The notes below the pieces were generated by a model. The model saw only the letters and a list, made by a program, of their open reading frames with translations, searched no databases and was not told where the DNA came from. A program made the translations under genes and the position numbers. From Deinococcales bacterium (GTDB lineage: Bacteria; Deinococcota; Deinococci; Deinococcales; JAAFIG01), in NCBI GenBank assembly GCA_031414595.1, contig JANNVX010000058.1, forward strand, positions 1-38,910: a DNA stretch of 38,910 bases, read 5' to 3'. Shown piece by piece: positions 6,492-38,910 of the stretch (the stretch's first letter is position 1; every line of letters begins with the position of its first letter).

Positions 6492-6494
6492 AAA

Positions 6495-8117: not shown

Positions 8118-8127
8118 TTCTACCCCC

Positions 8128-8814: not shown

Positions 8815-8828
8815 GGTCACCTCCTATC

Positions 8829-9320: not shown

Positions 9321-9445
9321 AAATCTCCTCCTAGACATATTGGGTGTAGTATATTTTGATTGTCGGAATTTATTTTACTACAAAATGATTCAGTCGTTAA
9401 GTTATTTGAAATACCAACATACCAACCATTCACATCTAAATTTTT

Positions 9446-11167
9446 GTGTATACTTTCTCGGTGAAAAGTGACCATGTTATTCAAGGTGGCGCACTCAATG
9501 CGTTGCGGGCTGCACATGAAGCTCTTAGGAAGTCCCGCAGTACCCGTAAAATTGAAAAAGGTGCGGGGCTTAGTAACGGGGCAATTGGACGTGTACTTCA
9601 ATCTGGTCTAGGTAATCCGTGGAATATATTGCAAAAGTTGCGCCAAGCCTATAGTGAAGAGGTTGCTCCGTTTATTGAACCTCTATTTTCAAGCCAACTC
9701 GAGAAACCAAATTTACTTGGGTACGTTAAAACTGATTTTTTTGAGAAATCAAATAATCTACTTGAATACTCTAATCAAAATCCGATAAGTTCCCCACCCG
9801 TTTTTGATAAAACCAAAGATACTTACGCGCTTCAAATACGAATTTTGCAAAGCAAAGAAGTGCTTTTGAGTTGTGTCAACCATTTGCTTGAAGTTCCAAA
9901 GACTCCTATTCACGGTATTAACCAAAAAATAGTTATTACTTTTGATGCTGAATGCTCGCCATTGTTGGGGCAAGATTGGTTCTATAACAGAATACGTGAA
10001 TTGCTCGAAAAGAAGGTTACTGTGGATACATTATGGCGTAGAGATATTGTATCCGGTACTTATTCACAACACTTTTTACGCTGTTTTTTTAACGCCCTTG
10101 CATATGATGAATTTAGCTTAGGGCGGCTTTTTTTTAGTAATTCCTCTAAGCGCACCCTAGATGCTATTTTGCACTCAGAGCGAGGGTTTTTAGTTATGAA
10201 CCTTCAAAATCCTGATATGCCAACTGGTCTATATATATCGTTGGAAGACTTTCCTATCTCAACAGAAGAGAAAATGATGTTGCTTCGTGGTGCGGTGGGT
10301 CAGCTTGTAGCAGGGCTTGAATCCATGCTAAGTGATTCAAGTAAGCCAATGATTGAATCTAAAACCAAAAGAGTCCACGACCAAGTGTTATATGAACATG
10401 AGCTTGCTCGAGTAGAAAAGCATCAAGGAAGCAGTTTTTTGCTAAAAGCAACCTTTAGCACACTTTTATACCCTGAGAATTGGTTTTTTGGCACTCCAGA
10501 CGCAGAGTATGACGAATGGTATGACCGTACCTTAACTCGCTACCTAAACTTATATCCGACATATGAAGCTCGAGAGAAAGTCAAAAAAATTATTGATGCT
10601 CGTAAAGAGCGATGTAGTGCATTTTTGGAAACAATTAAAAATAATATTGTTACACATTTGGTTTCTCGAGATGCAGTTGTTGATTACATCAAGACGGGTT
10701 TGCGAAGCGATTCATATGATGATGATATTCCTGATTCTTGGAAACTTAGGAAACGACGATTAGACACCTTGGAAGCATTTTTAGGAAATCCAAATTATCG
10801 TTTTGCTATGCTTACGAGGGAAGAATTAAAAAAAGCCACAGGCTTTAACCGCGATTTATTTGCTTTACCCGTTATTGGTGTGGCAGGTAGTAGTGTTATC
10901 TTTGAGTATGTAATGCCAAAGGATATGGTAATTTCGGACAAACCATTATCACCCAAGAAGCGAGTTCATACAACACTAAGGCATACTGCGCTCGCCGCAT
11001 TTCTAGTGGAAAGTGGTAATGAGTGGTACGAATCCACAAGTGCAAAAAATCGTGGACTAGCAGCTTTTGATTACCTAAAAAAACTTCTTAACGATCAAAG
11101 GAGTGGTGCAGCTTTAACAATGCAATCCATCCCACAAAGAAAAATTCTAAAAACTAGAGCGGCTTAG
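9446..11167 (+). CDS. Hypothetical protein with a possible N-terminal XRE-like helix-turn-helix
   Basis: 573-aa ORF divergent from the vWA operon. STRKIEKGAGLSNGAIGRVLQSG resembles an HTH. The remainder is not recognised and the start is uncertain (GTG 9446 or 9461). Confidence 0.7.
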   Translation: MYTFSVKSDHVIQGGALNALRAAHEALRKSRSTRKIEKGAGLSNGAIGRVLQSGLGNPWNILQKLRQAYSEEVAPFIEPLFSSQLEKPNLLGYVKTDFFEKSNNLLEYSNQNPISSPPVFDKTKDTYALQIRILQSKEVLLSCVNHLLEVPKTPIHGINQKIVITFDAECSPLLGQDWFYNRIRELLEKKVTVDTLWRRDIVSGTYSQHFLRCFFNALAYDEFSLGRLFFSNSSKRTLDAILHSERGFLVMNLQNPDMPTGLYISLEDFPISTEEKMMLLRGAVGQLVAGLESMLSDSSKPMIESKTKRVHDQVLYEHELARVEKHQGSSFLLKATFSTLLYPENWFFGTPDAEYDEWYDRTLTRYLNLYPTYEAREKVKKIIDARKERCSAFLETIKNNIVTHLVSRDAVVDYIKTGLRSDSYDDDIPDSWKLRKRRLDTLEAFLGNPNYRFAMLTREELKKATGFNRDLFALPVIGVAGSSVIFEYVMPKDMVISDKPLSPKKRVHTTLRHTALAAFLVESGNEWYESTSAKNRGLAAFDYLKKLLNDQRSGAALTMQSIPQRKILKTRAA

Positions 11168-11234
11168 CATATACAATTCTTGTAAGCTCTTGCTAAAGTC
11201 GGTTCAAAAGTTCAAAAGACTAATTGTTCATCGG

Positions 11235-11606
11235 TTAATTTTTGATGCGTAAACTGGCACGTTCACACAGCACTTCAAGCACCTCAAACATGCACAGCAC
11301 TTGATACTGACGAACCCGAGTTGGCTCGAGAACGGCTGTCTCGAGCCACAAACTGCCCTGCACCTCATCGTAACTGCTGCTCAAGTTGCCGCGAAAATCA
11401 TCTAAGTGCGTGACTGACCAAACCCGCACGCCACTAAACTCAAAAAAACATTGTTCTGTTCCCAAACCACCTTCAGAGGTGTACTCGAGATGTAAACTTG
11501 CCTCGAGTTTCAACACCCCCTGCACATATTCGAGACGCTGCAAGACCAGTGCTTCACGCCCCCGCAGAATCCCGTGCCTGGTTTTAATTGGCTGGTAGTG
11601 GGGCAT
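11235..11606 (-). CDS. Hypothetical protein
   Basis: 123-aa ORF starting 10 nt after the upstream stop, with an AGAGG RBS. No motif recognised. Confidence 0.6.
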   Translation of the reverse strand: MPHYQPIKTRHGILRGREALVLQRLEYVQGVLKLEASLHLEYTSEGGLGTEQCFFEFSGVRVWSVTHLDDFRGNLSSSYDEVQGSLWLETAVLEPTRVRQYQVLCMFEVLEVLCERASLRIKN

Positions 11607-11616
11607 AGCAGCCTCT

Positions 11617-12825
11617 TTACCTCACTTGTAACGCAAGCCTTTGCGCCTCGAGCAGCGCTGTCTTGGGGTCAAGTCCGCCTTTTAAGCTGCGTTCCATTTG
11701 GGCTTCGAGAATATCACGCCATTTTTGGTACTCGAGCAGGTGTGGTGGGTTGTAGGCTTTTTCTAAGGCTTCTAGCCCAGCTTTCATGATTGGTTCGCCC
11801 ACAAAATCACCCAAGGGTTTAATCGCACTTTGGCGCACTGGCAGGTAATAGGATTCTTTGACAAAACGCACCACATTTTCGGTACGGGTCAAAAATGCCC
11901 AGAATTCAAATGCGCCTTTGGTTTCGGCTTCGGGGTTGCCCTTGGGAATAATCAGTTGTGATTCGCCCGCTAAGGTACGTCCCGGCATGGCAGAAGCCCC
12001 AATTTGAAAAGGTAGGACATCTTTAACCAATGGGTAAGCACTGGTTGGAACAGTCACCATAAAGGCTTTGGTTCGTACCCAGTCTATGACCGCAAAGTTA
12101 ATTTCGGCAAAATTACGGACTATCGCTTTGCCACCACGGGTTAAGTCATACATCATTTGTAGGGTTTGCATCGAAGCGGTTGAATCAAAATCGGGTTTGT
12201 TGTTGTTATCTAAAATATTACCACCTCGGCTCGAGACCATCGAACCAAAAATCCAACCATCCACAAAAAAGATTGCGCCTTTGCTGGTGCGGTTGGTTAG
12301 GGCATTACTGGCTTTAATATAATCATCCCATGAACGCGGCGCAGCTAAACCCTTTGCCTTAAACGCATCGGCGTTATAGGCAGTAATCAAGGTACTGGCA
12401 GCCCAAGGCAAACCAAAACGCTTATTATTTACCTGCCCGTATTCCCAGATGGTGTCATTAAAATCTTGGACTGTGCCTTTGGGCAGTGTCTCGAGCAAGG
12501 ATGTGGCATCAAGTAACTGGTTGCCTAGGGCTAAGCGCGTAAAAAAAGCATTGTCTATCTGCACCAGACTGGGCAAATCACCTTTGGCTGCCAAAGCCGC
12601 TTGGAGTTTAATTTGAATGTCCTTAAAATCGCCCGGTTCAGCCACTTCGACACTGTATTTATTTTGTGAATTATTAAATTCCTTAGCAAAGGTTTTTATT
12701 AAAGCTGCACTACTTTCACTTCCAACATAATGCCAGAAGGTAATTTTAGTTGGCGCGGCGGCTCGAGACGACAAACCAAGCAAAGCGGCAGCCACCGCCA
12801 AAATAGGAAGAACAAGCCATTTCAT
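11617..12825 (-). CDS. ABC transporter substrate-binding protein (family 1, UgpB/sugar-like)
   Basis: Signal peptide, ITFWH, FNNSQ, GLPW...YNADAFK..GL.APRSWDD, and GAFEFWAFLT..YLPVRQSA motifs. Confidence 0.88.
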   Translation of the reverse strand: MKWLVLPILAVAAALLGLSSRAAAPTKITFWHYVGSESSAALIKTFAKEFNNSQNKYSVEVAEPGDFKDIQIKLQAALAAKGDLPSLVQIDNAFFTRLALGNQLLDATSLLETLPKGTVQDFNDTIWEYGQVNNKRFGLPWAASTLITAYNADAFKAKGLAAPRSWDDYIKASNALTNRTSKGAIFFVDGWIFGSMVSSRGGNILDNNNKPDFDSTASMQTLQMMYDLTRGGKAIVRNFAEINFAVIDWVRTKAFMVTVPTSAYPLVKDVLPFQIGASAMPGRTLAGESQLIIPKGNPEAETKGAFEFWAFLTRTENVVRFVKESYYLPVRQSAIKPLGDFVGEPIMKAGLEALEKAYNPPHLLEYQKWRDILEAQMERSLKGGLDPKTALLEAQRLALQVR

Positions 12826-12926
12826 AGATGTAGTCTATCAGGAATGTCGGATGAGCCTCATGAAAGAATTGTCAAGAAACCTTTTTGGTTGCCCCGCCGA
12901 CGTGCTTTTGACTTGATTCCTATTCT

Positions 12927-14564
12927 CTATTTGCGAGATTGTAACCAAATTTCAAGTGCCACAACCCGTTCCTCTACAAAATTAAGATGCTCGCCACGTT
13001 CAAAACGATTCTCGAGAGTAACCAAAAAAGCCTTTGTACTCAATAATCCGTACTTGGCAAGATGACTCTGCTCAAAAAGTGCTTTCAAACCTTGAAATTC
13101 TTGAGCGAAACCAATGCTATGGTACGCACCCCACGTATCTTTTCCATGGCGCTTTAGCATTTTAGGATGATAACGGTGGGCGAAGCAGCGTTTGAAAAAT
13201 GCTCGAGCGCCCAGCTTATTGTCTATGTGAAGGGCTGGTGGAATTGCAAGCGCAATCTCAAGAGATTTTCTGGTTAAAAATGGGTAATGTTGACTGATTC
13301 CATATTTCCACAATACTGACTGCTCGAGTGAAAACGCAGCATGACTGTACAAAAGCTGCTTGTAAACATCTCTTCGAGTTTTTGGTAATTGATCATGCAA
13401 CCAGCCAATCAAAACCGCACTTTGAGCTTCGTTACTTAATTTAAGGTAAGTTGCCTGCTGAAGACAGTCTTGGTCATAATCTTGGTTTATCTGCCAATCA
13501 CGCTGATTGATTTGCATAAATTCTGAAAGTCGCCATAGTTGAGCTATCAATGCCACATAATTCTTGGTACGAATAAAATCTCCAAGAAAAGACAAATCTT
13601 CCCGAAAAGCATCACCGCCAACGCCGCAAATTAGACTATTCACACCAAGGAATTGAAAATGCAAAGCACGTTGTGTCTCGAGTTCACCACCAGCAATCGC
13701 AACATTAGGTTCATCATAATCTGTTGCGTACTGAACCCAGTTTTTATAATCCCAACACCCTGATATTGGCATCGTATCCATTTGTATATTTTCGCCAACA
13801 AATTCGACGGCAAACTCGGCAAAAACGGTATCCGTATTTCTATCGCCACTTCTGACAACGTGATGCAAGGCGTAAAGCTGTTCTGATTTAAGTTTTGCAA
13901 TGCTTAACAATAAACTTGAGTCAAAACCGCCACTCAATAAAACACCTACCGAATCAGATTCTGGCGATGCTTTAAGCAGTTCTGTTTCAAGAAGTCTTCC
14001 AAGTGTATCAACATCCGAATTGATTTTAACTTCGGGGATTTTAGCGAATTTCTCGGCGTAAACTTCTTTTCGATTCAGTGAATAGGCATAATTCGGGCGA
14101 ACTCGAACGATATTCTTCCAAGGTGTGATTTCCCATTGCGGACTACTGGCATAATTCGCGGCAAGAAAAACCTCAAGGTAAAGTTTGTCTATTTCATTGA
14201 GGTTTAGATGTTGCCTAAGATTTTCTAAAGAAACTGAAATGGCAAAACTGTTTGGAGTACGTGAGTAAAATAATGGAATACTACCCATAATGTCTCGAGC
14301 TAAAATTATTTTATCGGGCATGACCAAAATTGCTGCAAAGTTACAAACCATGTCTTCAAGTGATTCAAAAAGTTGCAAATAACTACCAAATTGCTTGGCT
14401 TGTTCAAAGAATTTTAAGGTGGCTTTACGATACCCAACTTTTGTGAAAACCAATAACAGCCCTAGCTCGAGTGACTGCTCAAGAACAACCAATGCTTTAG
14501 GTAATTTGCCAAGAAGTTCAATTTGACTCTGGTCTTGGAGCTTAAAATTCCGCAATTCGATCAT
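12927..14564 (-). CDS. Lasso peptide cyclase (C protein, asparagine synthetase-like)
   Basis: LARDIMGSIPLFY, VLLSGGFDSS ATP-pyrophosphatase motif, GVGGD and YPFL. No N-terminal glutaminase Cys. Overlaps the B2 gene. Confidence 0.88.
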   Translation of the reverse strand: MIELRNFKLQDQSQIELLGKLPKALVVLEQSLELGLLLVFTKVGYRKATLKFFEQAKQFGSYLQLFESLEDMVCNFAAILVMPDKIILARDIMGSIPLFYSRTPNSFAISVSLENLRQHLNLNEIDKLYLEVFLAANYASSPQWEITPWKNIVRVRPNYAYSLNRKEVYAEKFAKIPEVKINSDVDTLGRLLETELLKASPESDSVGVLLSGGFDSSLLLSIAKLKSEQLYALHHVVRSGDRNTDTVFAEFAVEFVGENIQMDTMPISGCWDYKNWVQYATDYDEPNVAIAGGELETQRALHFQFLGVNSLICGVGGDAFREDLSFLGDFIRTKNYVALIAQLWRLSEFMQINQRDWQINQDYDQDCLQQATYLKLSNEAQSAVLIGWLHDQLPKTRRDVYKQLLYSHAAFSLEQSVLWKYGISQHYPFLTRKSLEIALAIPPALHIDNKLGARAFFKRCFAHRYHPKMLKRHGKDTWGAYHSIGFAQEFQGLKALFEQSHLAKYGLLSTKAFLVTLENRFERGEHLNFVEERVVALEIWLQSRK

Positions 14565-14898
14565 ATTCCTTTAATGACTCCAAACTTTGCGAAATGGGTA
14601 TCTGATTGACTTCTACCCAAGCATGGGACGCAACAGGTTCATGTTGCACGCCAAATACCACAACACCACAAATATTATTTTTTCGTAATAAATGTACCAG
14701 AAGTGTAGACCTGACTAAGCAAGTGCAGTCAAAAGGTGCAAGGCTACAGACAAAATTAACAAGTCGTACAAATGATTTAGCTTGTTTTGGCTCGAGCTTG
14801 CCACGAGGTACACCAATAAAATGTGTAACTGCATTAATACCCTCACGTTCAATCGAGCGGCGTACTCTTGGCAACATCCAAGCTGTGTAAATCAGCAT
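14542..14898 (-). CDS. Lasso peptide leader peptidase (B2, transglutaminase-like)
   Basis: TCLVRS (catalytic Cys), VVFGV and SHAWVE (His) motifs in a 118-aa protein. Confidence 0.9.
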   Translation of the reverse strand: MLIYTAWMLPRVRRSIEREGINAVTHFIGVPRGKLEPKQAKSFVRLVNFVCSLAPFDCTCLVRSTLLVHLLRKNNICGVVVFGVQHEPVASHAWVEVNQIPISQSLESLKEYDRIAEF

Positions 14899-15164
14899 GA
14901 TTCCTCAGTGATTAAATGATGTTGTTGCAGCAAAGCAATACTTTCTCGAACTGATTGCTCGAGTTCTAAATCTGTACCTTCAAATTCTTCTTTAAAGCAT
15001 TTGAGAATTTGTTCAAAATTAGCTGGTAGTGCTTGCCAAACAGCATTGATAATATCATCACCACGTAGCACTACATCGCCTGAAAAATGAATGAAGACAA
15101 CAGACTGATTTGCGGCATTGACACTGACCTTGACACTCTCGAGTGGTTTCCAAATGATGCTCAT
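14892..15164 (-). CDS. Lasso peptide RRE / PqqD-family protein (B1/E)
   Basis: 90 aa with beta strands followed by 'VWQAL...FEQILKCFKEEFE...LEQSVRESIALLQQHHLI', the PqqD winged-helix pattern. Lies between the ABC and B2 genes. Confidence 0.8.
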   Translation of the reverse strand: MSIIWKPLESVKVSVNAANQSVVFIHFSGDVVLRGDDIINAVWQALPANFEQILKCFKEEFEGTDLELEQSVRESIALLQQHHLITEESC

Positions 15165-16639
15165 GTTGCCTCGAGAATAGTTACTCGGTCATTGCTATCC
15201 CGTTGCAGTATCACCACATTATCCGCTAAACTCTGTACAAGTGGCTGGTGAGCAACCACGACGGTCTTGAGCTTCTGTCGATACTTTTTGATAATGCCAA
15301 CAGCTTTTTCGGCTAAAGCATCATTCATAGCGCTAAAACTTTCATCTAAATAGACTAAACGTGGTGAATCTGCCACTATTAAAGCCAGTGCCACCAGTTG
15401 TCTTTCGCCACCCGACAATTTAGCCAAGGGTAAGGTCAAATCTGTTACTTTAAGAAGCCCAAGTAATTCTTGAGAAACTTCTGCTTTTACCTGTGGTAAG
15501 TCCAATATTTCTTGTAAAGTCCAATCTGGAAACTCGAGTCGCTGATGTAAATACCGAACATTTTTACGTTCACCATGATTAAATAAGGCTGACATCAGAG
15601 TTGTCTTACCAACGCCTGTTGCTCCTGTTAGAACCGTTAGCCCCTGTTTAGGCTCGAGTTGCAAAGCTGGTAGTGGTGGTTGTTCGGGTTCTCGAGCTAA
15701 AAAAGTTTTGATACGGTCAAATGCACCTGAAAGTTGGCTATGCTGCGACCAAGCGTCTATAACTGTGTTTATATCGTTAATAAAGTGACTTGCATACATT
15801 GATAAAGCAATTGCTAGACCTGTACTGACTGTTCCATCTTGAATCTGAGGAAGCAAAAAGACAAAACCTAATGGTGTAAGCAAAAAGTTGAAGAAAACAA
15901 AACTATAACTAGCCAGTGTAGTTTGAACACTTAAACGTTGGGCTTTTTGAATCGCAGTATTAAATTTTTCTTCGTAAATTTTTGATTGACGATTAAAAAC
16001 TGTTATTTGTACAAATTGTCCGACTCCCATAATAAGATTTTCTAATTTCTCTGTAACTTGTCCCCAAGCACCATAATATGCCTTACTTGACTTTTCAACA
16101 CTTTTATTGAGCCACCAAGGAATCCACAGTGCTAAAATCGTATAAATCAGAACAAAAATTGTTAAAGATATAGACTGTGTAAGTAAGATTGCAAATCCAA
16201 TGACAGCTTTCAAAAAACCAAAACTCGCATCCTGTATCATTCGCCAATATATTCTGTACTCGGTCGCATCGTTCATCGCAAGTTGCAATGTTTCAGGGTT
16301 CAATTGCTGATTAATATCTGTGTCTGTATGTATTTTAAGTTTTAAGACAAGTTGATTACGAATAGATTTCATAGCTCCCATTGCTAGAGTGGAACGAGCA
16401 AATGAAAGCAAGGTAGCAAAACTAATTAAAAGTATTACCAAGCCCACATAAGTAAAGACAAATTTAGGCATTTGCTCAAGGCTTTTCTTACCTAATACTT
16501 CATCCACAACTAAGCGGTAAACTTGTGGAAAGGTAGATTCCACTATCGCCATTCCAATGACAGAAAAAATCAAAAGACCGAGTATTTTCGGATCAAATGA
16601 GTTGGGTTTTAATGAACGGTTCTTTTCTTGATTGATCAT
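15161..16639 (-). CDS. ABC exporter, fused TMD + compact NBD (lasso D protein)
   Basis: Multi-TM N-terminus, Walker A GATGVGKT, LSGGE signature, Walker B LVYLDE and VVAH. ATGA overlap with the RRE gene. Confidence 0.85.
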   Translation of the reverse strand: MINQEKNRSLKPNSFDPKILGLLIFSVIGMAIVESTFPQVYRLVVDEVLGKKSLEQMPKFVFTYVGLVILLISFATLLSFARSTLAMGAMKSIRNQLVLKLKIHTDTDINQQLNPETLQLAMNDATEYRIYWRMIQDASFGFLKAVIGFAILLTQSISLTIFVLIYTILALWIPWWLNKSVEKSSKAYYGAWGQVTEKLENLIMGVGQFVQITVFNRQSKIYEEKFNTAIQKAQRLSVQTTLASYSFVFFNFLLTPLGFVFLLPQIQDGTVSTGLAIALSMYASHFINDINTVIDAWSQHSQLSGAFDRIKTFLAREPEQPPLPALQLEPKQGLTVLTGATGVGKTTLMSALFNHGERKNVRYLHQRLEFPDWTLQEILDLPQVKAEVSQELLGLLKVTDLTLPLAKLSGGERQLVALALIVADSPRLVYLDESFSAMNDALAEKAVGIIKKYRQKLKTVVVAHQPLVQSLADNVVILQRDSNDRVTILEAT

Positions 16640-16656
16640 ACTTCACCATAATAAAC

Positions 16657-16679
16657 GGATGCCACATTTTGTGGCATCC
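16657..16679 (-). promoter_or_regulatory. Intergenic hairpin between the precursor and ABC genes
   Basis: GGATGCCACA-TTT-TGTGGCATCC, a perfect 10-bp stem. Confidence 0.65.
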
Positions 16680-16698
16680 CTAACAGATTTACAATAGC

Positions 16699-16833
16699 TT
16701 ACGGATTGAATTCTATTCTTATGTATCTTCCGTAATCCCCATCAGCTACAGGACCACCTTTAAGAATTTCAGTGAACGCATTTCCAAGAATTTTGAGTTG
16801 TGGTTTGCGGACTTGCTTTTTATTTTGCTTCAT
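16699..16833 (-). CDS. Lasso peptide precursor (A), 44 aa: leader MKQNKKQVRKPQLKILGNAFTEILK, core GGPVADGDYGRYIRIEFNP
   Basis: GAGGTG RBS before ATGATG (16836/16833). xxxPxLxxxG leader pattern. Gly-start core with Asp at position 8. First gene of the biosynthetic operon. Confidence 0.82.
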   Translation of the reverse strand: MKQNKKQVRKPQLKILGNAFTEILKGGPVADGDYGRYIRIEFNP

Positions 16834-16872
16834 CATCTCACCTCTGTATTGTATTCGCCCAATTTTTCCTAT

Positions 16873-16915
16873 AAAAAAAGAGCCGTCCTGAGTGGTACAC
16901 TCAGGACGGCTCTTT
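16873..16915 (-). terminator. Strong terminator-like hairpin upstream of the lasso precursor
   Basis: AAAGAGCCGTCCTGAGTG-GTA-CACTCAGGACGGCTCTTT, a perfect 18-bp inverted repeat (16877-16915), followed by a T7 tract on the minus strand. Confidence 0.7.
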
Positions 16916-17070
16916 GCAATTTTTTGAGCTTTAAGTCGTATATAACAATACAAATTGATTTTTGGATTTTGTACTTTCTCGAGTACCCATACTTTTTGAA
17001 TGTGATTATCTTCTTTGATTTAGTCGTCCCGCCGACCAGCTTTACCCTCGAGCAACGTTACACTAATCGC

Positions 17071-31720: not shown

Positions 31721-31795
31721 GGGCAGGTAGCTCAGCGGTAGAGCGGTCGCCTTACAAGCGACTGGTCGCAGGTTCAATCCCTGTCCTGCCCACCA
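31721..31795 (+). tRNA. tRNA-Val (anticodon TAC)
   Basis: Cloverleaf with acceptor GGGCAGG/CCTGCCC, anticodon arm GTCGC-CTTACAA-GCGAC, T-loop GGTTCAATCC and encoded CCA. Confidence 0.96.
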
Positions 31796-31796
31796 C
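31751..31796 (+). repeat. attL, 46-bp direct repeat (3' part of tRNA-Val)
   Basis: CTTACAAGCGACTGGTCGCAGGTTCAATCCCTGTCCTGCCCACCAC, identical to 38289-38334. Confidence 0.95.
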
Positions 31797-31800
31797 ACAG

Positions 31801-31843
31801 ACGCATTACTTACAGTTTATGTAGTAATGCGTTTCTTTATTTT
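31801..31843 (+). terminator. Element-supplied terminator downstream of tRNA-Val
   Basis: ACGCATTAC(T)TACA-GTTTA-TGTAGTAATGCGT followed by a T-rich tract. Confidence 0.65.
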
Positions 31844-32339
31844 CCAAACGTGTTCAAGGTCACGTTTCGCAGTTTTGGCGGTGCTTGTGGGTAGCGCTTT
31901 GACTGCTGCTATTCGAGCGGCGGACTTGCCCTCACTCCTCGAGCGGCATTTCCCTAATTCCCTCGAGCGTGGTTTCCGAGTTCGCCCCTTGTGGCGTTCC
32001 GAGTCTCGAGCCACAGACGCAGCCCTAAAACGCTTCAAAGATGGCGCGTGGGTGCTTACAGACTTTGCCCTGTCCAAGTCTTGGAATGCCTATCAATTCT
32101 TAACTGACTTGTGTTCCTATGCCCCTCGAGAAGCGGCGCGGCTGTTACTTGCTGAAACTGACACACAAGACACCCCAGCCAAACCCGTAGCCCTAACAAG
32201 CCCAGCCCCTCAACTTCTCGAGCCTGAAACCTTGGCAGAGTTGCCCGAGTGCCTGACTGACTTCCTACACTTGAATCGTTTGTACTTTGGCGGTCGTCTG
32301 ACCCACAACCCAGACGGCACAGTATCAAACGAAGCCTAA
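31827..32339 (+). CDS. Hypothetical protein resembling a degenerate primase zinc-binding (CHC2-like) domain
   Basis: ADLPSLLERHFP...PLWR.E...WVLTDF...NAYQFL...EAARLL follows the DnaG ZBD layout but lacks the Cys ligands. The start is uncertain and probably downstream (about 31880-31900). Confidence 0.5.
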   Translation: MRFFIFQTCSRSRFAVLAVLVGSALTAAIRAADLPSLLERHFPNSLERGFRVRPLWRSESRATDAALKRFKDGAWVLTDFALSKSWNAYQFLTDLCSYAPREAARLLLAETDTQDTPAKPVALTSPAPQLLEPETLAELPECLTDFLHLNRLYFGGRLTHNPDGTVSNEA

Positions 32340-32425
32340 ACCTATCTTCTCGAGCCTTTAGCCGATTGGATAGCTTCTGTATGTGTTGATTTTGGCATAG
32401 GACAGTACAAAGTAGGTGGTGAAAA

Positions 32426-32635
32426 GTGAGCCGAGAACTACGCACCCCTGTTTACTTGATACCCCTGTCCTTAAATCAAACCAAGCCCAGCACAGTGTTT
32501 TTGTCTCAAGTCGGGGTTCTTGCCCTTGCTTTTAGTGATGGCGCGGCTCGAGTCAGCTTGTCCAGTCGTCCGAGTCAATTATGCTCGAGTTGGGGGCTGT
32601 TGTGCGTTGCTTGGGTGGTGTGCCATGCCAATTAA
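32426..32635 (+). CDS. Small hypothetical ORF overlapping the putative dso and the rep start
   Basis: GTG preceded by AGGTGG, 69 aa. May instead be a frameshifted Rep N-terminus or non-coding origin sequence. Confidence 0.3.
   Translation: MSRELRTPVYLIPLSLNQTKPSTVFLSQVGVLALAFSDGAARVSLSSRPSQLCSSWGLLCVAWVVCHAN
32444..32468 (+). other. Putative double-strand origin (nick site)
   Basis: TACTTGATA matches the CTTG/ATA nick consensus of pC194/phiX174-type origins. It is flanked by two ACCCCTGT direct repeats and lies just upstream of rep. Confidence 0.5.
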
Positions 32636-33701
32636 ACGTTCTTTGGTCGTCTCATCACAAGACCGAATGCTGATAGCCCCATCTGGCAACACTTGGCGCG
32701 AAACTCACAGCGCCAAACGCAAACGCCGCAAACTCTCAGCACGGTTAAACGGTGGTGTCCGTGTTTACCTCAAGACTCGAGGCAGGGGCGCAAACAAGCG
32801 CTGTAGTGTTTTGACCTTAACCATTGACCCACAAGACCGCACCCCGAAACAAGCCTATGAGCAAATGTGCAAAGCATGGAATGCCCTGAGTACATGGTGG
32901 CGCAAACGCTACCCTGCCATGAGATTCTTTAGGACTGTAGAACTTCATGGGAACGGCTTCCCACACTTCCATGTGATGCTGATTGCAGCACCATTCATTC
33001 AACAAAAAGCGATTGTTGACCAGTGGAAAAACTTACTCGGGCAGTCTCGAGCAGTGGTAGACATTCGGGCAGTGCGAAACCCAGAACACGCCATACGCTA
33101 TGTGACTAAGTACCTCTTAAAGCAATCCGAAGCCCTCGAGCAAGTCAGAACCCAAGCCCAAGAAGCCTTTAAGACTGCCACAGAACAGGCGCTCGAGTGG
33201 CAAACAGCCGCCGATGCTGCCCGAAGTTTAGGACTCGAGGACGAAGCACGGCGCTGTGAACAGGAAGCCCAAAATATCGGCGGCGCTGGTGATGAAATGC
33301 GTATTGCTGCCCTGATTGCAGACATCAAACGAGCCAAAGCAGAAGGCAGGATAGAAAGCGCGGTGTATCAAGAAGAACTCTTAGAACAGGTGAAAGCCGA
33401 AATACAAGCGGCTCGAGAACAAGCCCAAGAACAACAGCAACAAGACCCCAACTCGAGAAACATTGCTGATGCGTCTTGGTGGGGTCGTCGGGTGCGTCCG
33501 TGGAGTGCAAGCCGTGGTTTGCTTGACTCAGAGCAAGGCACGGTTGATAAGTGGTGGAATAGTCTGTCAATCGTGCCAATGATTACACCGTTTCAGGCGT
33601 GTCAGATTGCCTATAGCCTAAATTTTGAGACATACAACTTTGATCCAAAAATAGGCTTTTATGACTTTCGAGCCAATGCCCCAAACCCAGCCCAAGCGTA
33701 A
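32625..33701 (+). CDS. HUH rolling-circle replication initiator (Rep)
   Basis: Motif I VLTLTID, motif II FPHFHVML (HUH), motif III YVTKYLLK (two Tyr) and distal RPWSASRG. The frame is open from 32520; ATG 32625 has a GGTGG RBS. Confidence 0.88.
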   Translation: MPIKRSLVVSSQDRMLIAPSGNTWRETHSAKRKRRKLSARLNGGVRVYLKTRGRGANKRCSVLTLTIDPQDRTPKQAYEQMCKAWNALSTWWRKRYPAMRFFRTVELHGNGFPHFHVMLIAAPFIQQKAIVDQWKNLLGQSRAVVDIRAVRNPEHAIRYVTKYLLKQSEALEQVRTQAQEAFKTATEQALEWQTAADAARSLGLEDEARRCEQEAQNIGGAGDEMRIAALIADIKRAKAEGRIESAVYQEELLEQVKAEIQAAREQAQEQQQQDPNSRNIADASWWGRRVRPWSASRGLLDSEQGTVDKWWNSLSIVPMITPFQACQIAYSLNFETYNFDPKIGFYDFRANAPNPAQA

Positions 33702-33851
33702 GCAACAAAACCAAAAAGTGAGACAATAGCGACCGGTGTCTATCCCAAAAGCTGGCTAGGACTCTAGCAGTCTAGCCAAGAATGTAAAGTAAAAAATGCC
33801 ACTGTGAGTAAGTAACAACGAACTCTGTAACTGATTTACCCTAACTGTAAC

Positions 33852-33880
33852 TTGAGTTTACGGTAAACTTAATATACTAC
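33852..33880 (+). promoter_or_regulatory. Putative promoter containing a palindromic operator
   Basis: TTGAGT-17 nt-TACTAC with the palindrome AGTTTAC-G-GTAAACT at 33855-33869. Confidence 0.45.
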
Positions 33881-33944
33881 GTGGTACTCGGTAATAAACC
33901 CTTATAATTTACCAGTGCTACACCTATAAAAAAGGTAGGAAACT

Positions 33945-34221
33945 ATGAAAACTTCGGTAGCTAGGTCAGTTCAAACGTGGCGTAGCCTTAATGCGAAAAA
34001 GCACCCACTTGATATAGAAACCCTAACGGATGCTCAATATACTCGAACATTTCTTTGGTACTGATTCGACGGCGGTTTTGCTCGAGAATGTTTCAGGTAT
34101 TCGTGAGTTATTGGAGCTTGACAAGAAGAAAGTCAGGGATTTGCTTTACTCGCCTTATATTGGTGAAGGTACAGCAGCACAAGTTATGATTTTATGCGAA
34201 ATGCTTAGAAGGGTGCGGTAG
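33945..34221 (+). pseudogene. Frameshifted RadC(UPF0758) N-terminal HhH-like gene, no JAB domain
   Basis: The frame from ATG 33945 (AGGA RBS) gives ...IETLTDAQ. Skipping one base near 34038 continues ILEHFFG...LLENVSGIRELL...IGEGTAAQVMILCEMLRR, matching the RadC N-terminal pattern. Confidence 0.6.
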
Positions 34222-34789
34222 TATTTTTGTGTGCCAAGGCTTCATATTGAAAACTTTTCAAAATTTGTGAATCAACCTCTTTAGCTTTCATAACTATCCA
34301 AGCTCCAAGACTTATGGCTAAATCAGTGCTGTTCTCGTATTTGTTAAATTTAATTAGCCACAAATCAAGGGCATCTGAAATTATTTCAGATTGAGTCTTT
34401 TTAGACTTCTTAGAAACGGTTCTTAGTCGTTCTTTGAGGCTTGGGCTTATGGTAAAAGTCAAATTTGACTTTTCTATTTTAGAGCCATCCAAAGTATTAA
34501 ACTTCCACAATTCGTATTTTTTATTTACGAAACATACAAGCGTCACTTTTTCGCTGAAGTCTTGCCATATCTTTTCTGGTGGGTCAATCGTTTGGTTTAA
34601 CTCTGGGTGAAAATTTAGCCATTCTTCAAGTGATTTACGAACAATCAAAGCAATAGAAATTTCTGCTAATTTTGCCATTAAATCTAACCTCAACTTTATT
34701 GCTGTAGGGATTTTAACGGTAAAACTCTTTGATCCAGACGCTATGCGAGGTCTTCCCCCCTTACTTATTTGGTTCGACAAATCGCCCAT
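34205..34789 (-). CDS. Tandem ribbon-helix-helix (CopG/Arc-like) transcriptional regulator
   Basis: Two RHH-like units, SFTVKIPTAIKLRLDLMAK...IALIVRKSLEEWL and LTFTISPSLKERLRTVSKK...QSEIISDALDLWL. N-terminal GGRPR. Confidence 0.72.
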   Translation of the reverse strand: MGDLSNQISKGGRPRIASGSKSFTVKIPTAIKLRLDLMAKLAEISIALIVRKSLEEWLNFHPELNQTIDPPEKIWQDFSEKVTLVCFVNKKYELWKFNTLDGSKIEKSNLTFTISPSLKERLRTVSKKSKKTQSEIISDALDLWLIKFNKYENSTDLAISLGAWIVMKAKEVDSQILKSFQYEALAHKNTTAPF

Positions 34790-34850
34790 AATCTCATTCT
34801 ACATTCCTAAAGGCTAGTCATGATAATTTAGCATTTGAAAACCTATGTTA

Positions 34851-34879
34851 TTGACTTTTTTTCAAAATTAGTTTACTAT
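34851..34879 (+). promoter_or_regulatory. Near-consensus sigma70 promoter for the element's rightward operon
   Basis: TTGACT-17 nt-TACTAT. The -10 is overlapped by GTTTACTATC, which recurs as GTTTACCTATC at 34892-34902. Confidence 0.65.
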
Positions 34880-34929
34880 CGCAAAAAGGTGGTTTACCTA
34901 TCTTTTTGCTTGCAATAGGAGAACTGTAT

Positions 34930-35598
34930 ATGAGTACAAAACTTGTCAAAGTACCGTTAGCCGCGTATGAAAAAGCGGTCAAGCTATCTCAAGAGAAAGG
35001 CGTAACCATAGGCGCGGCTCTTGAGTATTTCGTGAACATGGGCGAGGTACAGCCGAATCAAGCTGACTCGGTAAACCAAAACGTGAATACTTATCCATCT
35101 TCTGTCATGGTCTCAATCGAGGACTCTAAACAAGTCCAGACATTACCGCGAGTAAATAACAATCTGAACGCTGGTGACATTATGGGTTTACTCGAGAAAG
35201 CCTATTCCAAAGGGCAAGACGATATTCTCAGTGAACAGCGCATGGAGTTGTTGGAAGAGGCTGCCGCGGTCAGCAAAGAAATGGTTATTTCAAATACTAA
35301 AAAGATGGACAAAATAGAAACCATTCTAGGTGGTTTAGGTTTAGGTCTGGCTGACCATCTCGAGCAGCACACACGAGTCATTCAAGGCGATGTAAACGCA
35401 ATGCAACCACAATCAACTATTGATGTAATTACGGAAGCATTTCGTAGGGTTAAAGGGCATGGTGATATGGAGAAAGCCCTAGAAAATTTCAAGACTCAAA
35501 CACAAATAGGCGAACTCGAGGATACAGAAGCCCCTGAATTGCAAGACGCTATAGAAACCCAGACACCACCTAAACGGCGTGGGTTTCTCGGCTTATGA
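34930..35598 (+). CDS. Hypothetical protein with RHH-like N-terminus and amphipathic C-terminal tail (KRRGFLGL)
   Basis: AGGAGA RBS before ATG 34930. KLVKVPLAAYEKAVKLSQEKGVTIGAALE fits an RHH pattern. Confidence 0.7.
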   Translation: MSTKLVKVPLAAYEKAVKLSQEKGVTIGAALEYFVNMGEVQPNQADSVNQNVNTYPSSVMVSIEDSKQVQTLPRVNNNLNAGDIMGLLEKAYSKGQDDILSEQRMELLEEAAAVSKEMVISNTKKMDKIETILGGLGLGLADHLEQHTRVIQGDVNAMQPQSTIDVITEAFRRVKGHGDMEKALENFKTQTQIGELEDTEAPELQDAIETQTPPKRRGFLGL

Positions 35599-35852
35599 GT
35601 CAGGACGTTAAAATCATGACTACAGCACTTGAAAAAGCAAATCATGCTGGTTATAGCGAAGGTCAACAAATTGGCGTTGTTGATGGTGTCGTTATTGGTC
35701 TTGTATTTGCGTTTGTGGCGGTGGCTTCGGTGTCCTACTTCTTACAACGTAAAGCACTGTTAGAAGTTCAAAAAAATAAATCTCAAACTTTACCTACTCC
35801 AAGTATTGCATTGGTAAGTAATGAAAAAGTTATGTCAGGAGGGTGGTTATGA
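35595..35852 (+). CDS. Small single-TM protein
   Basis: ATGA overlap with the upstream gene. Hydrophobic GVVIGLVFAFVAVASVSYFL followed by basic residues. Confidence 0.7.
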   Translation: MSQDVKIMTTALEKANHAGYSEGQQIGVVDGVVIGLVFAFVAVASVSYFLQRKALLEVQKNKSQTLPTPSIALVSNEKVMSGGWL

Positions 35853-36229
35853 GTCCTTTACTTGCACTTCAATGGATTTTTGGGGCGTTTGCTTCAATTT
35901 TTGGTTTGAAGCTGACTGCTGCACAATTGGGGTTTGATTTAACAATTTACAAGCCTACAGCCCCTCCCAACACGCCACAAGGTCAAGGTGGTGGCAATCC
36001 TGCCCCTAACCCACCAAATAATGGAAGTCTTGTCAAAGACTTGGTTAGCAATCCCTCGAGTATGTGGGCATTGGCTGCACTGGGTTTCGTCAGTGTATTC
36101 GTTATTGCTCAGGTTAGAGCGGCTGGTGGTGACGCGGCGGCAGGTGTGCGTGGCGTGTACAAAGAAGCCCAAGCAACAACAAGAAATCTGGCAGACCCAA
36201 ACACACAAATAAGAAAACGAAAGCGTTAG
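35849..36229 (+). CDS. Small membrane protein (two hydrophobic segments, Pro/Gly/Asn linker, basic C-terminus)
   Basis: GGAGG RBS and ATGA overlap. Hydrophobic LLALQWIFGAFASIFGL and MWALAALGFVSVFVIA. Ends in RKRKR. Confidence 0.72.
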   Translation: MSPLLALQWIFGAFASIFGLKLTAAQLGFDLTIYKPTAPPNTPQGQGGGNPAPNPPNNGSLVKDLVSNPSSMWALAALGFVSVFVIAQVRAAGGDAAAGVRGVYKEAQATTRNLADPNTQIRKRKR

Positions 36230-36257
36230 CCCAAGGACTCATTTTTTTAGGAGAACT

Positions 36258-36437
36258 ATGAAGTTAGTAGCTGGAATTGTTATTGGTTCAGTCGTTGGAA
36301 TTACGTTGTGGAACACCTTTATAACCATGCCTGACATGAGGAAGAGGCAAGAATACGCAATGAAAGAAAACGAACGCTGTAAAGCCCTCATGATGGCATA
36401 TTTCCCCGATAGAAAAGATATGTGGGGAATGATGTAA
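36258..36437 (+). CDS. 59-aa protein with an N-terminal TM helix (not in the ORF track)
   Basis: AGGAG RBS. Translates as MKLVAGIVIGSVVGITLWNTFITMPDMRKRQEYAMKENERCKALMMAYFPDRKDMWGMM. Confidence 0.68.
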   Translation: MKLVAGIVIGSVVGITLWNTFITMPDMRKRQEYAMKENERCKALMMAYFPDRKDMWGMM

Positions 36438-36461
36438 TTAGTAAGCCTAATAGGTGAATTT

Positions 36462-36701
36462 ATGAAATTGATAGGCGGAACAATGGTCGTTCTGGGTGGC
36501 TTAGGAGTTTTACAGGGAATAGTCACGTCAGGGAATATCTTGGGTGTGAGCTATGTTACTAACCCAAGTAACCCTTCACAAATTATCGAACCCAGTACAG
36601 AACAGCGTCTCAGAGCAATAGCAGGAACAGTCATAGTAACGGGTGCATCAGTCCTATTACTGTTTTGGGGTACTCAAATTTATAACAAAAAAGATGCGTG
36701 A
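36462..36701 (+). CDS. Small two-TM protein
   Basis: AGGTG RBS. Hydrophobic LIGGTMVVLGGLGVLQGIV and AIAGTVIVTGASVLLLFWG. Confidence 0.7.
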   Translation: MKLIGGTMVVLGGLGVLQGIVTSGNILGVSYVTNPSNPSQIIEPSTEQRLRAIAGTVIVTGASVLLLFWGTQIYNKKDA

Positions 36702-36712
36702 AGACGCAATGA

Positions 36713-36751
36713 AAACCCCGCGCTTTATGCTTGGCGGCTGGCGCGGGGTTT
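36713..36751. promoter_or_regulatory. GC-rich inverted repeat between the membrane-protein genes and the integrase module
   Basis: AAACCCCGCGC-17 nt-GCGCGGGGTTT. Confidence 0.55.
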
Positions 36752-36763
36752 GGGGATGAACTT

Positions 36764-37078
36764 ATGAATAAGGTAGCAGGAAAAGCATTGAATCACAAGT
36801 CTTTTGGTTCATCGGCTTTAAGTTTACAAGAGTTATCTCGGCTACGCCCCTTTATGCTTTTCTTTGAGTTTTTTCTTACACTCGAGGATTTAGAACGCAA
36901 TAGCCTTTCAGAGCGCGTTACTATACAAGCATACAGCGCTGTTCAAATGGCGGCGGCTTCCTTGTTTTCTGTACTTCTTAAAGCCCTACCCCCTCGAGTT
37001 GCCAGAGAAGCACAAAGCGCCATTCAAAACGCTCTTTTCTCGCTTGACTTGGAAGACCCGAAGAAGGGCGGCGCGTGA
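36764..37078 (+). CDS. Hypothetical protein
   Basis: Helical ORF directly upstream of the integrase. ATG 36764 chosen; function not recognised. Confidence 0.5.
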   Translation: MNKVAGKALNHKSFGSSALSLQELSRLRPFMLFFEFFLTLEDLERNSLSERVTIQAYSAVQMAAASLFSVLLKALPPRVAREAQSAIQNALFSLDLEDPKKGGA

Positions 37079-37111
37079 TGGCTTCTTTGTGCAAAGCCAT
37101 AGGCGGCACTC

Positions 37112-38209
37112 ATGCCTAGGCGCATTCTCAAAGATAGGGGTAGCACCAAGGCTAAAGCCCTGTCCCTTGCTGATTCCTCACCCTCAAGCATTTACGGACG
37201 CGTTGCAGCCGATAGGGTGGCAGGTCTTACAACTTTACAGCGTGGCATCCTACCTACTCCCCAAATGCTGCTTGGTGTTTGGCTTGAGCATTTTGTGACT
37301 TCCGAAACAACAGCCCAAACCCAAAGCACAAAAAAGAATGCTCGAGCTTACTTAAAGCGAATCCTGCCCGAATTGGGCGGGGTTCGGCTTGGTGCTTTGA
37401 ATCCGCTTATGTTGCGTTCGTTCATGGATTCAATCTGTGACTTGTCGAGCAGTACCCAACAAAAGATATACGGCTTATTAAAACGTGCCTTACAGGATGC
37501 GGTCAATCTCGAGGTGCTACCGCGTAACCCGATGACTGCTGTTAAACGCCCGAAGCTAAAACCAGTCAATGAGACTGAACCGCTCGAGCCTGAACAAGTC
37601 GAGAACCTGATTAGGCTCTTAAAAGGTCATCGGCTCGAGTTGCTGTTCCATCTTTGCTTTACTTGTGGCTTACGAATTGGTGAGGCGTGTGCTTTACGTT
37701 GGGATAATCTTCGCGGTTCGGTACTACAAGTCAATCACACCATTAACCGCTTCTACAGCAAGAAAAATGACGAAGAACTGTTTCGTCCTGCCAAGTCTGG
37801 TAGCGCTCGAGAAATGCGAATAGACGCGGATACACTGGCATTGTTTGCCCAGCACAAGACCCAGCAAGAACACCAGGGTCGGGGCTTTAATCCGCTTGGC
37901 TTGGTGTTCTTGTCCATTACTGGCACACCTTTAGATGCCAATAATTTTTATAACCGAGTCTTTAGAGACCTTCTCGAGCAAGCTGGACTACGCGCTCAAG
38001 GAACTCATGCCATGCGTAAAACCTACGCAACCCTTGCGGCTGTGGTGCTACCAATTCAGGATGTACAGGCACGGATGGGACACAAAGACCCGCGTATGAC
38101 GACTTTGCGGGTCTATGCCAAGAGCCAAGCAAGGCGCAATACAAAAGCAGCCGTGCCATTGTCTGAACTGATTAAGGCTTCAAAGATTGACGAGGCAGAC
38201 AGTGAGTAG
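37112..38209 (+). CDS. int: Tyrosine recombinase / phage-type integrase
   Basis: GLRIGE (R), AKSG (K), HAMRKTYAT (HxxR) and MGHKDPRMTTLRVY (H, Y) motifs. Core-binding region ALQDAV...LPRNPM. Adjacent to attR. Confidence 0.93.
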   Translation: MPRRILKDRGSTKAKALSLADSSPSSIYGRVAADRVAGLTTLQRGILPTPQMLLGVWLEHFVTSETTAQTQSTKKNARAYLKRILPELGGVRLGALNPLMLRSFMDSICDLSSSTQQKIYGLLKRALQDAVNLEVLPRNPMTAVKRPKLKPVNETEPLEPEQVENLIRLLKGHRLELLFHLCFTCGLRIGEACALRWDNLRGSVLQVNHTINRFYSKKNDEELFRPAKSGSAREMRIDADTLALFAQHKTQQEHQGRGFNPLGLVFLSITGTPLDANNFYNRVFRDLLEQAGLRAQGTHAMRKTYATLAAVVLPIQDVQARMGHKDPRMTTLRVYAKSQARRNTKAAVPLSELIKASKIDEADSE

Positions 38210-38288
38210 TATTTTGAGGTCATGGTGTGGCGTGGGTTTATCTCGCGTCACAGATTCAAATTTACAATACTTTACAAAATTGAAGCAT

Positions 38289-38334
38289 CTTACAAGCGAC
38301 TGGTCGCAGGTTCAATCCCTGTCCTGCCCACCAC
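38289..38334 (+). repeat. attR, 46-bp direct repeat (displaced 3' part of tRNA-Val)
   Basis: Identical to 31751-31796. Confidence 0.95.
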
Positions 38335-38340
38335 GTTAAG

Positions 38341-38374
38341 GACGCAAGAATTTAATTCTTGCGTCTCGTTTTTT
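38341..38374 (+). terminator. Probable original tRNA-Val terminator
   Basis: GACGCAAGAAT-TTA-ATTCTTGCGTC followed by TCGTTTTTT, directly after attR. Confidence 0.7.
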
Positions 38375-38399
38375 CTTGGCTTTACACCCTAACTACACC

Positions 38400-38738: not shown

Positions 38739-38772
38739 TATGTATTTGAAGGACTTTCCTTATTTTCTGCAT

Positions 38773-38910
38773 TAGACGTTATCGGAAATAAGAAACTAGC
38801 TCGATTTCCGCAAAGCCCGTTTGCGAAAAGCACAGCGAAGGTTATGCAAACCACAAGCAATCTCCATAAACCAATCAGAGCAATACCACTTCGTATTCCG
38901 CAACACGTCC
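38773..38910 (-). mobile_element. Right end of a probable IS5-family (ISL2-group) insertion sequence
   Basis: Terminus-like TAGACGTTATCGGAAATA (38773-38790) lies just past the transposase stop. The partner end is outside the window. Confidence 0.6.
38796..38910 (-). CDS. DDE transposase C-terminal fragment (IS5/ISL2-like)
   Basis: Manual translation DVLRNTKWYCSDWFMEIACGLHNLRCAFRKRALRKSS* contains the 'MEIACGLHNLR' C-terminal pattern of DDE_Tnp_4 transposases. Confidence 0.72.
   Translation of the reverse strand, partial: DVLRNTKWYCSDWFMEIACGLHNLRCAFRKRALRKSS

Follow-up and report, generated by a model that had tools for sequence, protein, structure and literature searches.

The stretch of DNA analysed here (the window) is the 38,910-nucleotide (nt) contig JANNVX010000058.1 of a Deinococcales bacterium (assembly GCA_031414595.1, forward strand). 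It carries a 6.5-kb element at 31797-38334 that is integrated at a tRNA-Val(TAC) gene and flanked by a perfect 46-nt direct repeat. Between the two att copies lie a 170-amino-acid (aa) open reading frame (ORF), a rolling-circle replication protein (Rep) of the HUH type, a 63-aa ORF, a ribbon-helix-helix (RHH) protein encoded on the minus strand, an operon of small genes and a tyrosine integrase. The operon is the subject of this work. A preliminary description had seen in it five translationally coupled genes for small membrane proteins at 34930-36701 and had proposed a virion or transfer module.

The operon and its conserved core

The operon and its upstream region contain the following features.

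34851-34879, + strand: promoter-like sequence TTGACT-17-TACTAT (9 of 12 positions) in the divergent intergenic region
34930-35598, + strand: g222, 222 aa, C-terminus KRRGFLGL
35595-35852, + strand: g85, 85 aa, start overlapping the g222 stop
35849-36229, + strand: g126, 126 aa, start overlapping the g85 stop
36258-36437, + strand: g59, 59 aa
36462-36701, + strand: g79, 79 aa
36764-37078, + strand: g115, sixth gene of the operon, 104 aa from MNKVAGK

All five ORFs first described were recovered in the ORF list at their coordinates, and they are as tightly packed as reported, with ATGA overlaps at 35595 and 35849 and remaining gaps of 28 and 24 nt. This includes the 59-aa gene, which had been thought absent from the ORF track: the ORF list contains 36258-36437, and the exact g59 product is present in a public protein collection (NCBI and Logan gene calls). 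Ribosome-binding sites had been noted before most genes and were found as GGAG, AGGAGG, AGGAG or AGGTG, 5-8 nt upstream of four of the five starts; the g85 start has no Shine-Dalgarno-like motif. Additionally, the operon extends beyond these five genes to a conserved sixth, g115, giving a six-gene span of 34930-37078. The near-consensus promoter could be upheld in part. The site is present, matches at 9 of 12 positions and is plausibly placed, but promoter-like sites are not more numerous in the element region than expected by chance (6 found, compared with 7.8 +/- 2.9 in shuffled sequences).

To call hydrophobic helices, we used Kyte-Doolittle windows of 19 residues. By this measure four of the five genes first described encode small membrane proteins, while g222 has no hydrophobic helix and is a soluble, acidic protein (23 K+R vs 33 D+E). 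The g85 protein is bitopic, with one hydrophobic helix at 26-44. Two helices each were found in g126 (about 4-22 and 71-89) and in g79 (3-21 and 50-68), the latter ending in NKKDA, and g59 has one helix at 4-22 followed by a charged tail. The basic stretches reported after the membrane helices are present. In g126, a hydrophobic N-terminal segment is followed by a spacer rich in Pro, Gly and Asn, the second helix, a conserved RAAG..AAAGVRGVYKEAQ segment and the basic end RKRKR. The GC content at third codon positions (GC3) of g85, g126 and g79 is 0.26-0.36, compared with 0.42-0.50 in most neighbouring host genes.

The preliminary description had likened the operon products to coat proteins. 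However, its first and largest product, g222, is a predicted DNA-binding coiled-coil protein and not a coat-like membrane protein. The AlphaFold2 (AF2) model of g222, with a mean predicted local distance difference test (pLDDT) score of 59, contains a strand at 4-9, helices at 10-23 and 27-36, and a long helix at 81-151. The strand-helix-helix at 4-36 reaches a pLDDT of about 70-78, and the model predicts an RHH-like N-domain (about residues 1-40) followed by a linker and then the long helix. The nearest Atlas cluster is 94% RHH_1 at a score of 0.85, which serves as a lead only, and hhalign placed the N-domain in register with the first RHH segment of the regulators at an E-value of 0.0021 but a probability of 13%. 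When compared with 48,161 PDB chains, the g222 model gave generic long-helix and coiled-coil matches only (Z up to 6.8).

A homologue of g222 at 52% identity (P0002) was found, along with weaker homologues in three related elements, L009, L010 and L025. G139, H143 and Q146 of a GLGLxxxHLxQH motif, located on helix 81-151, are invariant in the five sequences of this core family. The head protein shares 16-25% identity with its relatives and thus diverges far faster than Rep (64-66%) or the g170 protein (71-75%). Among 364 Deinococcota genomes, the core family was not found beyond the four founding genomes, with one borderline match at 9.8e-4.

The three related elements share a gene order consisting of an RHH-like gene, a core protein of 182-224 aa, a one-helix ORF and a g115-like gene. 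The RHH-like domain is fused to the core protein in the window (g222) and encoded by a separate small gene in L009, L010 and L025. The one-helix ORF, 87-96 aa in length, abuts or overlaps the core gene with gaps of 0, -1 and -4 nt, respectively, compared with -4 nt for g85 in the window. Relatives of g115 were detected by tblastn in L010 and L009 at 35-36% identity (alignments A5 and A8). The AF2 model of g115 has three helices at 21-48, 54-73 and 77-96 (pLDDT 67.5) and no match in BFVD at E <= 0.001. Between the one-helix ORF and the g115-like gene is a variable slot, occupied as follows.

L009: nothing
L010 and L025: winged-helix protein (MarR-like, 1e-3 in L025)
G001:C543: g126 homologue, 35% identity
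Window: g126, g59 and g79

The g126 homologue of contig G001:C543 (E 1e-12) is flanked by a p58 gene and a g115-like gene, and two further homologues, at 67% and 53% identity, are present in a large protein collection. The best Atlas score for g126 was 0.78, below a useful score, with unnamed viral clusters as the nearest. For g79 there is one homologue, P0157, at 79% identity; this protein and P0154, the closest homologue of g126 (67%), are each encoded on a 1144-bp contig. Both g126 and g79 are narrowly distributed, with 2-3 relatives among 5.8 billion clusters. Conservation of the genes together in related elements, by which the preliminary description was to be judged, therefore holds for part of the operon, namely the head gene, the one-helix ORF and g115, but not for g126, g59 and g79, which are missing from L009, L010 and L025. 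Judged by these gene orders, the operon has the behaviour of a core module, not of cargo. 

A C-terminus made of basic residues, glycine and aromatic or hydrophobic residues occurs once per module in each of the four modules compared. The core protein carries it in modules that lack a winged-helix gene (KRRGFLGL in the window, KKRGLFS in L009), and the winged-helix protein carries it in modules with such a gene (KKKRGWLSRLFG in L010, GGGFFARLFRGR in L025). Inspection by eye of g126 and the tails as a u-spanin, a TonB-like spacer or a clamp-binding tail revealed no lipobox Cys and no motif match, and these candidates were rejected.

The integrated element and its relatives

The remaining features of the element and its insertion site are listed here.

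31721-31796, + strand: tRNA-Val(TAC) gene (ARAGORN; Rfam tRNA, 73 bits)
31751-31796, + strand: attL, the 3'-terminal 46 nt of the tRNA gene (direct repeat D1)
31827-32339, + strand: g170, conserved protein adjoining attL (71-75% identity in L010, L011, L012 and L013)
32625-33701, + strand: HUH rolling-circle Rep, 358 aa from MPIKRS (Pfam matches, alignment A2)
34030-34221, + strand: putative 63-aa ORF (ORF list only; no Pfam or PHROG match)
34205-34789, - strand: 194-aa RHH regulator with two RHH-like segments, oriented divergently from the operon
37112-38209, + strand: tyrosine integrase (Phage_integrase 1.1e-17; phrog_1 3.5e-52)
38289-38334, + strand: attR, the right copy of the 46-nt repeat (direct repeat D1)

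The operon genes sit on a mobile element, as indicated by the att repeat, an empty site and attP-type junctions in relatives. In a genome of the same genus (G003:C48), the orthologous tRNA gene directly abuts the homologue of window 38335-38395. This empty attB was located via a left-flank search; the right-flank search mostly matched a multi-copy repeat. On contig L012 (1900-2060) the integrase, a single att core, g170 and Rep follow in this order, and on L049 (G005; 1400-1640) the order is Xis, integrase, the 46-nt Val att and a 523-aa gene. As read from these contigs, both gene orders fit what a circular or tandem form with an attP-type junction would show. Of the features of an integrative and mobilizable element (IME), the element has its own integrase and att sites, along with the empty site in G003 and the attP-type junctions in L012 and L049, the junctions coming from relatives and not from the window copy. 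The element is single-copy in its own genome. In four metagenome runs of one study, the depths of the element contig (6552 nt) and the flank, taken at the level of contigs only, were 36.6/35.4, 25.7/25.2, 45.3/45.6 and 10.9/13.8. Among the runs listed as containing the stretch, none is recorded as RNA.

The related elements occupy different sites. L010 has integrated at tRNA-Pro, where the repeat is 45 nt long, and L025, from G003 of the same genus, is located at tRNA-Val(CAC) and begins with a different gene, of 523 aa and without a Pfam match. The integrase of L025 is 83% identical to that of the window. L009 is a 5.2-kb contig with Rep, on which no integrase was found. Both L010 (9204-9994, RelB-like antitoxin match in Pfam at 1e-3) and L025 (7330-8090, PIN-like by eye) have a toxin-antitoxin pair between Rep and the regulator, and none of these pairs is present in the window element. 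In L009 (3640-4299), downstream of Rep, an M23 peptidase (3.8e-19) follows an 84-aa protein with an N-terminal hydrophobic helix. This peptidase, which is absent from the window element, could have a wall-opening function. A holin-endolysin cassette was rejected for the window element, which has no muralytic domain, and the L009 peptidase lies elsewhere on its contig.

Pfam assigned Rep to PF23343 REP_ORF2-G2P at 1.2e-13, above the cut-off, and to Rep_1 at 1.6e-9. H114/H116 and Y159/K162/Y163 are invariant in alignment A2. Full-length relatives at 64-66% identity occur in five loci of Deinococcales metagenome-assembled genomes (MAGs), and Rep was found in 6 of 364 Deinococcota genomes, all belonging to one family. 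Among 1.84 billion representatives there were 1062 distant matches at E <= 0.001 and seven, including the protein itself, at E <= 1e-30. By tblastn, there was no match to Rep in INPHARED phages or in a plasmid collection. Six loci with distant relatives of Rep (L014-L019, from archaeal and Planctomycetota MAGs) have 66 ORFs of 110 aa or more no farther than 6 kb from Rep, and the 47 of these that were scanned contained no Zot domain. One of these loci has a serine recombinase and one a tyrosine integrase.

The best-conserved protein of the element family is g170 (71-75% identity), for which no Pfam or PHROG match was found. Its true start, from comparison with relatives, is probably later than annotated, near a VGSALT motif. 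By eye, its middle part resembles what we take to be a DnaG-type zinc ribbon without the cysteines.

The divergent regulator matches RHH_1 at residues 110-146 (Pfam, 1.3e-6) and, in PHROG, has an Arc/CopG-like match at 104-151 and a second match at 9-63. Counterparts are present in L010 and L025. A 24-nt direct repeat of 79% identity (D8) has one copy overlapping the promoter-like site (34849-34872) and one at the 3' end of the gene for the RHH regulator (34245-34268). Each copy contains a TTGA..TCAA inverted motif, and the two copies are candidate operators.

Further observations concern the composition of the window. CTCGAG occurs 163 times in the whole window, compared with 4.6 +/- 2.1 in shuffled sequences. 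Its density in g170, Rep and the integrase equals that of host genes, and it is sparse in the operon (4 in 34930-36701). The terminal 140 nt of the window (38770-38910) are part of a repeat that occurs in nearly identical form at 20 or more sites of the genome, many of them at contig ends. With a contig depth of ~1000, this repeat is probably an insertion sequence or miniature inverted-repeat transposable element (MITE) that broke the assembly. Lastly, the region 6000-17000 has a GC content of 0.36-0.41, compared with ~0.48, and contains genes of low GC3. This stretch may be another acquired island.

Possible roles of the operon

To place the operon within a known class, we searched for the hallmark proteins of filamentous phages and conjugative elements. 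Zot/pI ATPases had no match among the 11 element proteins in Pfam, and the Zot domain PF05707 was not found in the 94%-complete genome of the host, while control genomes gave matches. No Walker A motif ([AG]x4GK[ST]) is present in the six frames of 31797-38288, and no operon protein is larger than 222 aa, the size of the head protein, as a candidate adsorption protein. Additionally, VirB4 (PF03135) and VirD4 (PF02534) were not found in the host genome, a 94%-complete MAG whose plasmids may be unbinned, and AAA_10 was present there below the cut-off only. Rep could double as a relaxase. The small membrane proteins have no Spd-like match in Pfam or PHROGs, a result obtained with no dedicated Spd profiles compared. 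Because the element has no Zot/pI ATPase, Walker A motif or large adsorption protein, we rejected membership in the inoviruses and in the pSAM2-type elements on their defining features. Neither the filamentous-phage coat module nor the Streptomyces-type spread module of the preliminary description was thereby borne out.

Searches for relatives of the operon proteins were similarly sparse. IMG/VR contained no relative for five queries (g222, Rep, A2, A6 and A8), g79, g126 and alignments A9, A8 and A2 returned nothing meaningful when compared with PDB sequences, and a first metagenome contig scan gave no match. The two hits of a second scan (L007 and L008) are sugar-binding proteins that share the short word SQEKGVTI and were rejected as false leads. 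Pfam, PHROG, PADLOC and NCBIfam did not place the genes in any unrelated cargo family. Given this and the partial joint conservation of the genes, the preliminary proposal is not clearly overturned.

We propose, with a probability of roughly 0.4, that the operon products form a DNA-binding complex attached to the membrane, which serves the excised circle, for spread or maintenance. In the mechanism that we infer, from DNA binding and membrane attachment to complex formation, repression and purpose, g222 would bind element DNA via its RHH-like N-domain and would oligomerise via its ~70-residue helix. The basic/aromatic tail of g222 and the coupled one-helix g85 would together anchor it on the inner side of the cytoplasmic membrane. 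The g126, g59 and g79 proteins would be the occupants of a variable slot for small membrane proteins, and the three-helix g115 would close the operon. The divergent RHH protein could be the repressor by which the operon is silenced while the element is integrated. Because no NTPase is encoded on the element, any movement of DNA must rely on rolling-circle replication or on host machinery. Between the two purposes of such a complex, we lean slightly towards horizontal spread, in which DNA is brought to an exit route, over maintenance of the episome. Spread is favoured by how much of the genome the operon takes up, by how fast it diverges when compared with Rep and g170, and by the variable membrane-protein slot.

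Several results weigh against this proposal. The six operon proteins have no explanatory match in Pfam, PHROG, NCBIfam, PADLOC or PDB sequences. The RHH assignment of the g222 N-domain is weak, given a whole-model pLDDT of 59 and Pfam searches in which the domain and its four counterparts matched nothing at E-values up to 1 (5 of 5 sequences). Pairwise BLASTP between g85 and its positional counterparts was not significant (E 0.062 and 0.65), no homologue of g59 was found in the 18 other genomes of the family (0/18), and g126, g59 and g79, as described above, are not shared with the three related elements. The hydrophobic moment of the tails (0.17-0.35) is not above that of other C-termini of the same operons (0.12-0.66), and membrane binding by the tail is thus a conjecture from four cases. 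Element depth equals flank depth and so gives no sign of extra free copies in the four metagenome runs. The lack of an NTPase and the simple, tether-like architecture pull away from spread. Neither purpose is a neat fit, since an integrating element needs no segregation device and known DNA export uses an NTPase.

A somewhat unlikely alternative is that the operon serves maintenance of the episome only, with g222 as a single-protein partition or replication-organising factor that positions the excised circle in the manner of pSK1 Par or phi29 p16.7, and the small proteins as anchors or accessories. The predicted strand-helix-helix domain and long helix of g222 would suit such a factor, and the absence of an NTPase fits an NTPase-free tether. 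The module is also kept on L009, which has Rep and no integrase found, and attP-type junction contigs exist in relatives. However, with the element integrated at about one copy per chromosome, segregation would be dispensable, and a tether would hardly be expected to take up a third of a 6.5-kb element and to need as many as four membrane proteins. The divergence of the head protein, far faster than that of Rep and g170, also argues against this role, and in place of a centromere-like repeat array we found only the one 24-nt pair at 79% identity.

It appears unlikely that the operon encodes particle proteins, that is, parts of a filamentous or pleomorphic virion made by a new type of virus without an ATPase of its own or by a satellite that borrows a helper's assembly ATPase and secretin, in which g222 coats or delivers the DNA. 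Small membrane proteins do follow a G2P-type Rep in a small integrating element, and g79, with a signal-like helix, a second helix and a short basic end, resembles coat-protein precursors. Additionally, the M23 peptidase of L009 lies beside a small membrane protein, and small transmembrane proteins serve as an inovirus feature in a preprint (10.64898/2026.09.15.751708). That preprint gives the pI/Zot ATPase as the only conserved inovirus marker, and neither the element nor the 94%-complete genome contains Zot/pI, nor does the element contain a Walker A motif. The Thermus inovirus phiOH3 has a Zot-domain ORF8 and an ORF6 of roughly 500 aa (PMC4763002), in contrast to the operon with no protein above 222 aa for adsorption. 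Further points against particle proteins are that g79 and g126 have no PDB match, that no relative was found in IMG/VR (five queries) or, for Rep, in INPHARED phages, and that g126, g59 and g79 are not common to L009, L010 and L025.

We consider it just as unlikely that g126, g59 and g79, perhaps with g85, are host-directed cargo, acting as exclusion, immunity, holin-like or toxin/antitoxin proteins unrelated to DNA handling. Such proteins would shield the host or the element, or kill cells from which it is lost. These functions typically involve small proteins with one or two helices and charged ends, and the three genes occupy a slot that varies between related elements. Their very narrow distribution (2-3 relatives among 5.8 billion clusters) and low GC3 relative to most neighbouring host genes (g85, g126 and g79) would also be consistent with cargo. 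In contrast, PADLOC, Pfam and PHROG returned no match for them, and the window element has no endolysin or soluble toxin partner. The genes lie within the operon and not at an element end, and the pair of genes that encloses them recurs jointly in related elements. In addition, g126 recurs in the same slot of a second genome at only 35% identity, indicating a long association with the module.

Least probable of all is an NTPase-free apparatus that ties the circle to the membrane and wraps it in a vesicle, or in a particle of pleomorphic or filamentous form that lacks both a capsid protein and an assembly ATPase, for which archaeal plasmid vesicles and pleolipovirus-like agents offer parallels and which, if real, would be their bacterial counterpart in Deinococcota.

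Returning to the membrane-attached complex, its importance depends on which purpose it has. Small integrating rolling-circle replicons have been appearing in many uncultured lineages, and their movement from cell to cell is mostly unexplained. Here a third of 6.5 kb is spent on an operon for a predicted DNA-binding coiled-coil protein and tiny membrane proteins, without a motor. If the operon exports DNA, it would represent a minimal transmission device that works without a motor; if its role ends with tethering the episome, it would constitute a new type of maintenance system free of any NTPase. In either case it offers a compact, testable system of six genes in a phylum with tractable relatives (Deinococcus and Thermus).

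Comparison with known systems

The element is similar to the pSAM2-type integrative and conjugative elements of actinomycetes (AICEs) in several respects. Both have a tyrosine integrase that targets the 3' end of a tRNA gene, a rolling-circle Rep, a size of ~6-11 kb, small membrane proteins encoded in a block (the Spd proteins in AICEs), and integrated and circular forms. Unlike AICEs, the window element has no FtsK/SpoIIIE-like Tra translocase and no Walker A motif, its host is a Deinococcales bacterium and not a mycelial actinomycete, and its Rep has no match in plasmid records.

With filamentous phages (Tubulavirales) the element shares a G2P-type Rep (PF23343), a small genome, the ability to integrate and, after Rep, a run of small one- or two-helix proteins with basic ends. 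It differs from them in having no pI/Zot assembly ATPase, no large adsorption protein and no likeness to solved coat proteins. The single-stranded DNA-binding protein of filamentous phages is an oligonucleotide/oligosaccharide-binding (OB) fold, compared with the RHH-like coiled-coil protein at the head of the operon. A functional analogy to filamentous phages or pSAM2-type elements is possible, despite the failed membership in both classes.

MinD binds membranes through an amphipathic sequence at its C-terminus (PMC8155659). As in MinD, an otherwise soluble protein here ends in a short run of basic residues followed by Gly and aromatic or aliphatic residues. Here the tails are shorter, extending 6-11 residues beyond the basic cluster, they have an unremarkable helical hydrophobic moment, and their membrane binding is conjectural; the proteins that carry them are unrelated to MinD. 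The operon tails may resemble the MinD membrane-targeting sequence.

Par of the staphylococcal plasmid pSK1 and the membrane protein p16.7 of phage phi29 are NTPase-free DNA-tethering proteins. Like g222, they combine a DNA-binding domain with a coiled coil on a small replicon, without an NTPase, and p16.7 additionally has a membrane anchor. In contrast, g222 has no sequence or fold match to either protein, its predicted DNA-binding domain is RHH-like rather than a winged helix, and the operon adds small membrane proteins and a three-helix protein. On the basis of the sequence comparisons, the operon is without a described counterpart in the libraries searched, and a narrow literature search found no paper on such elements in Deinococcota. 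The element itself is a new lineage within a known kind, the small integrative rolling-circle replicon.

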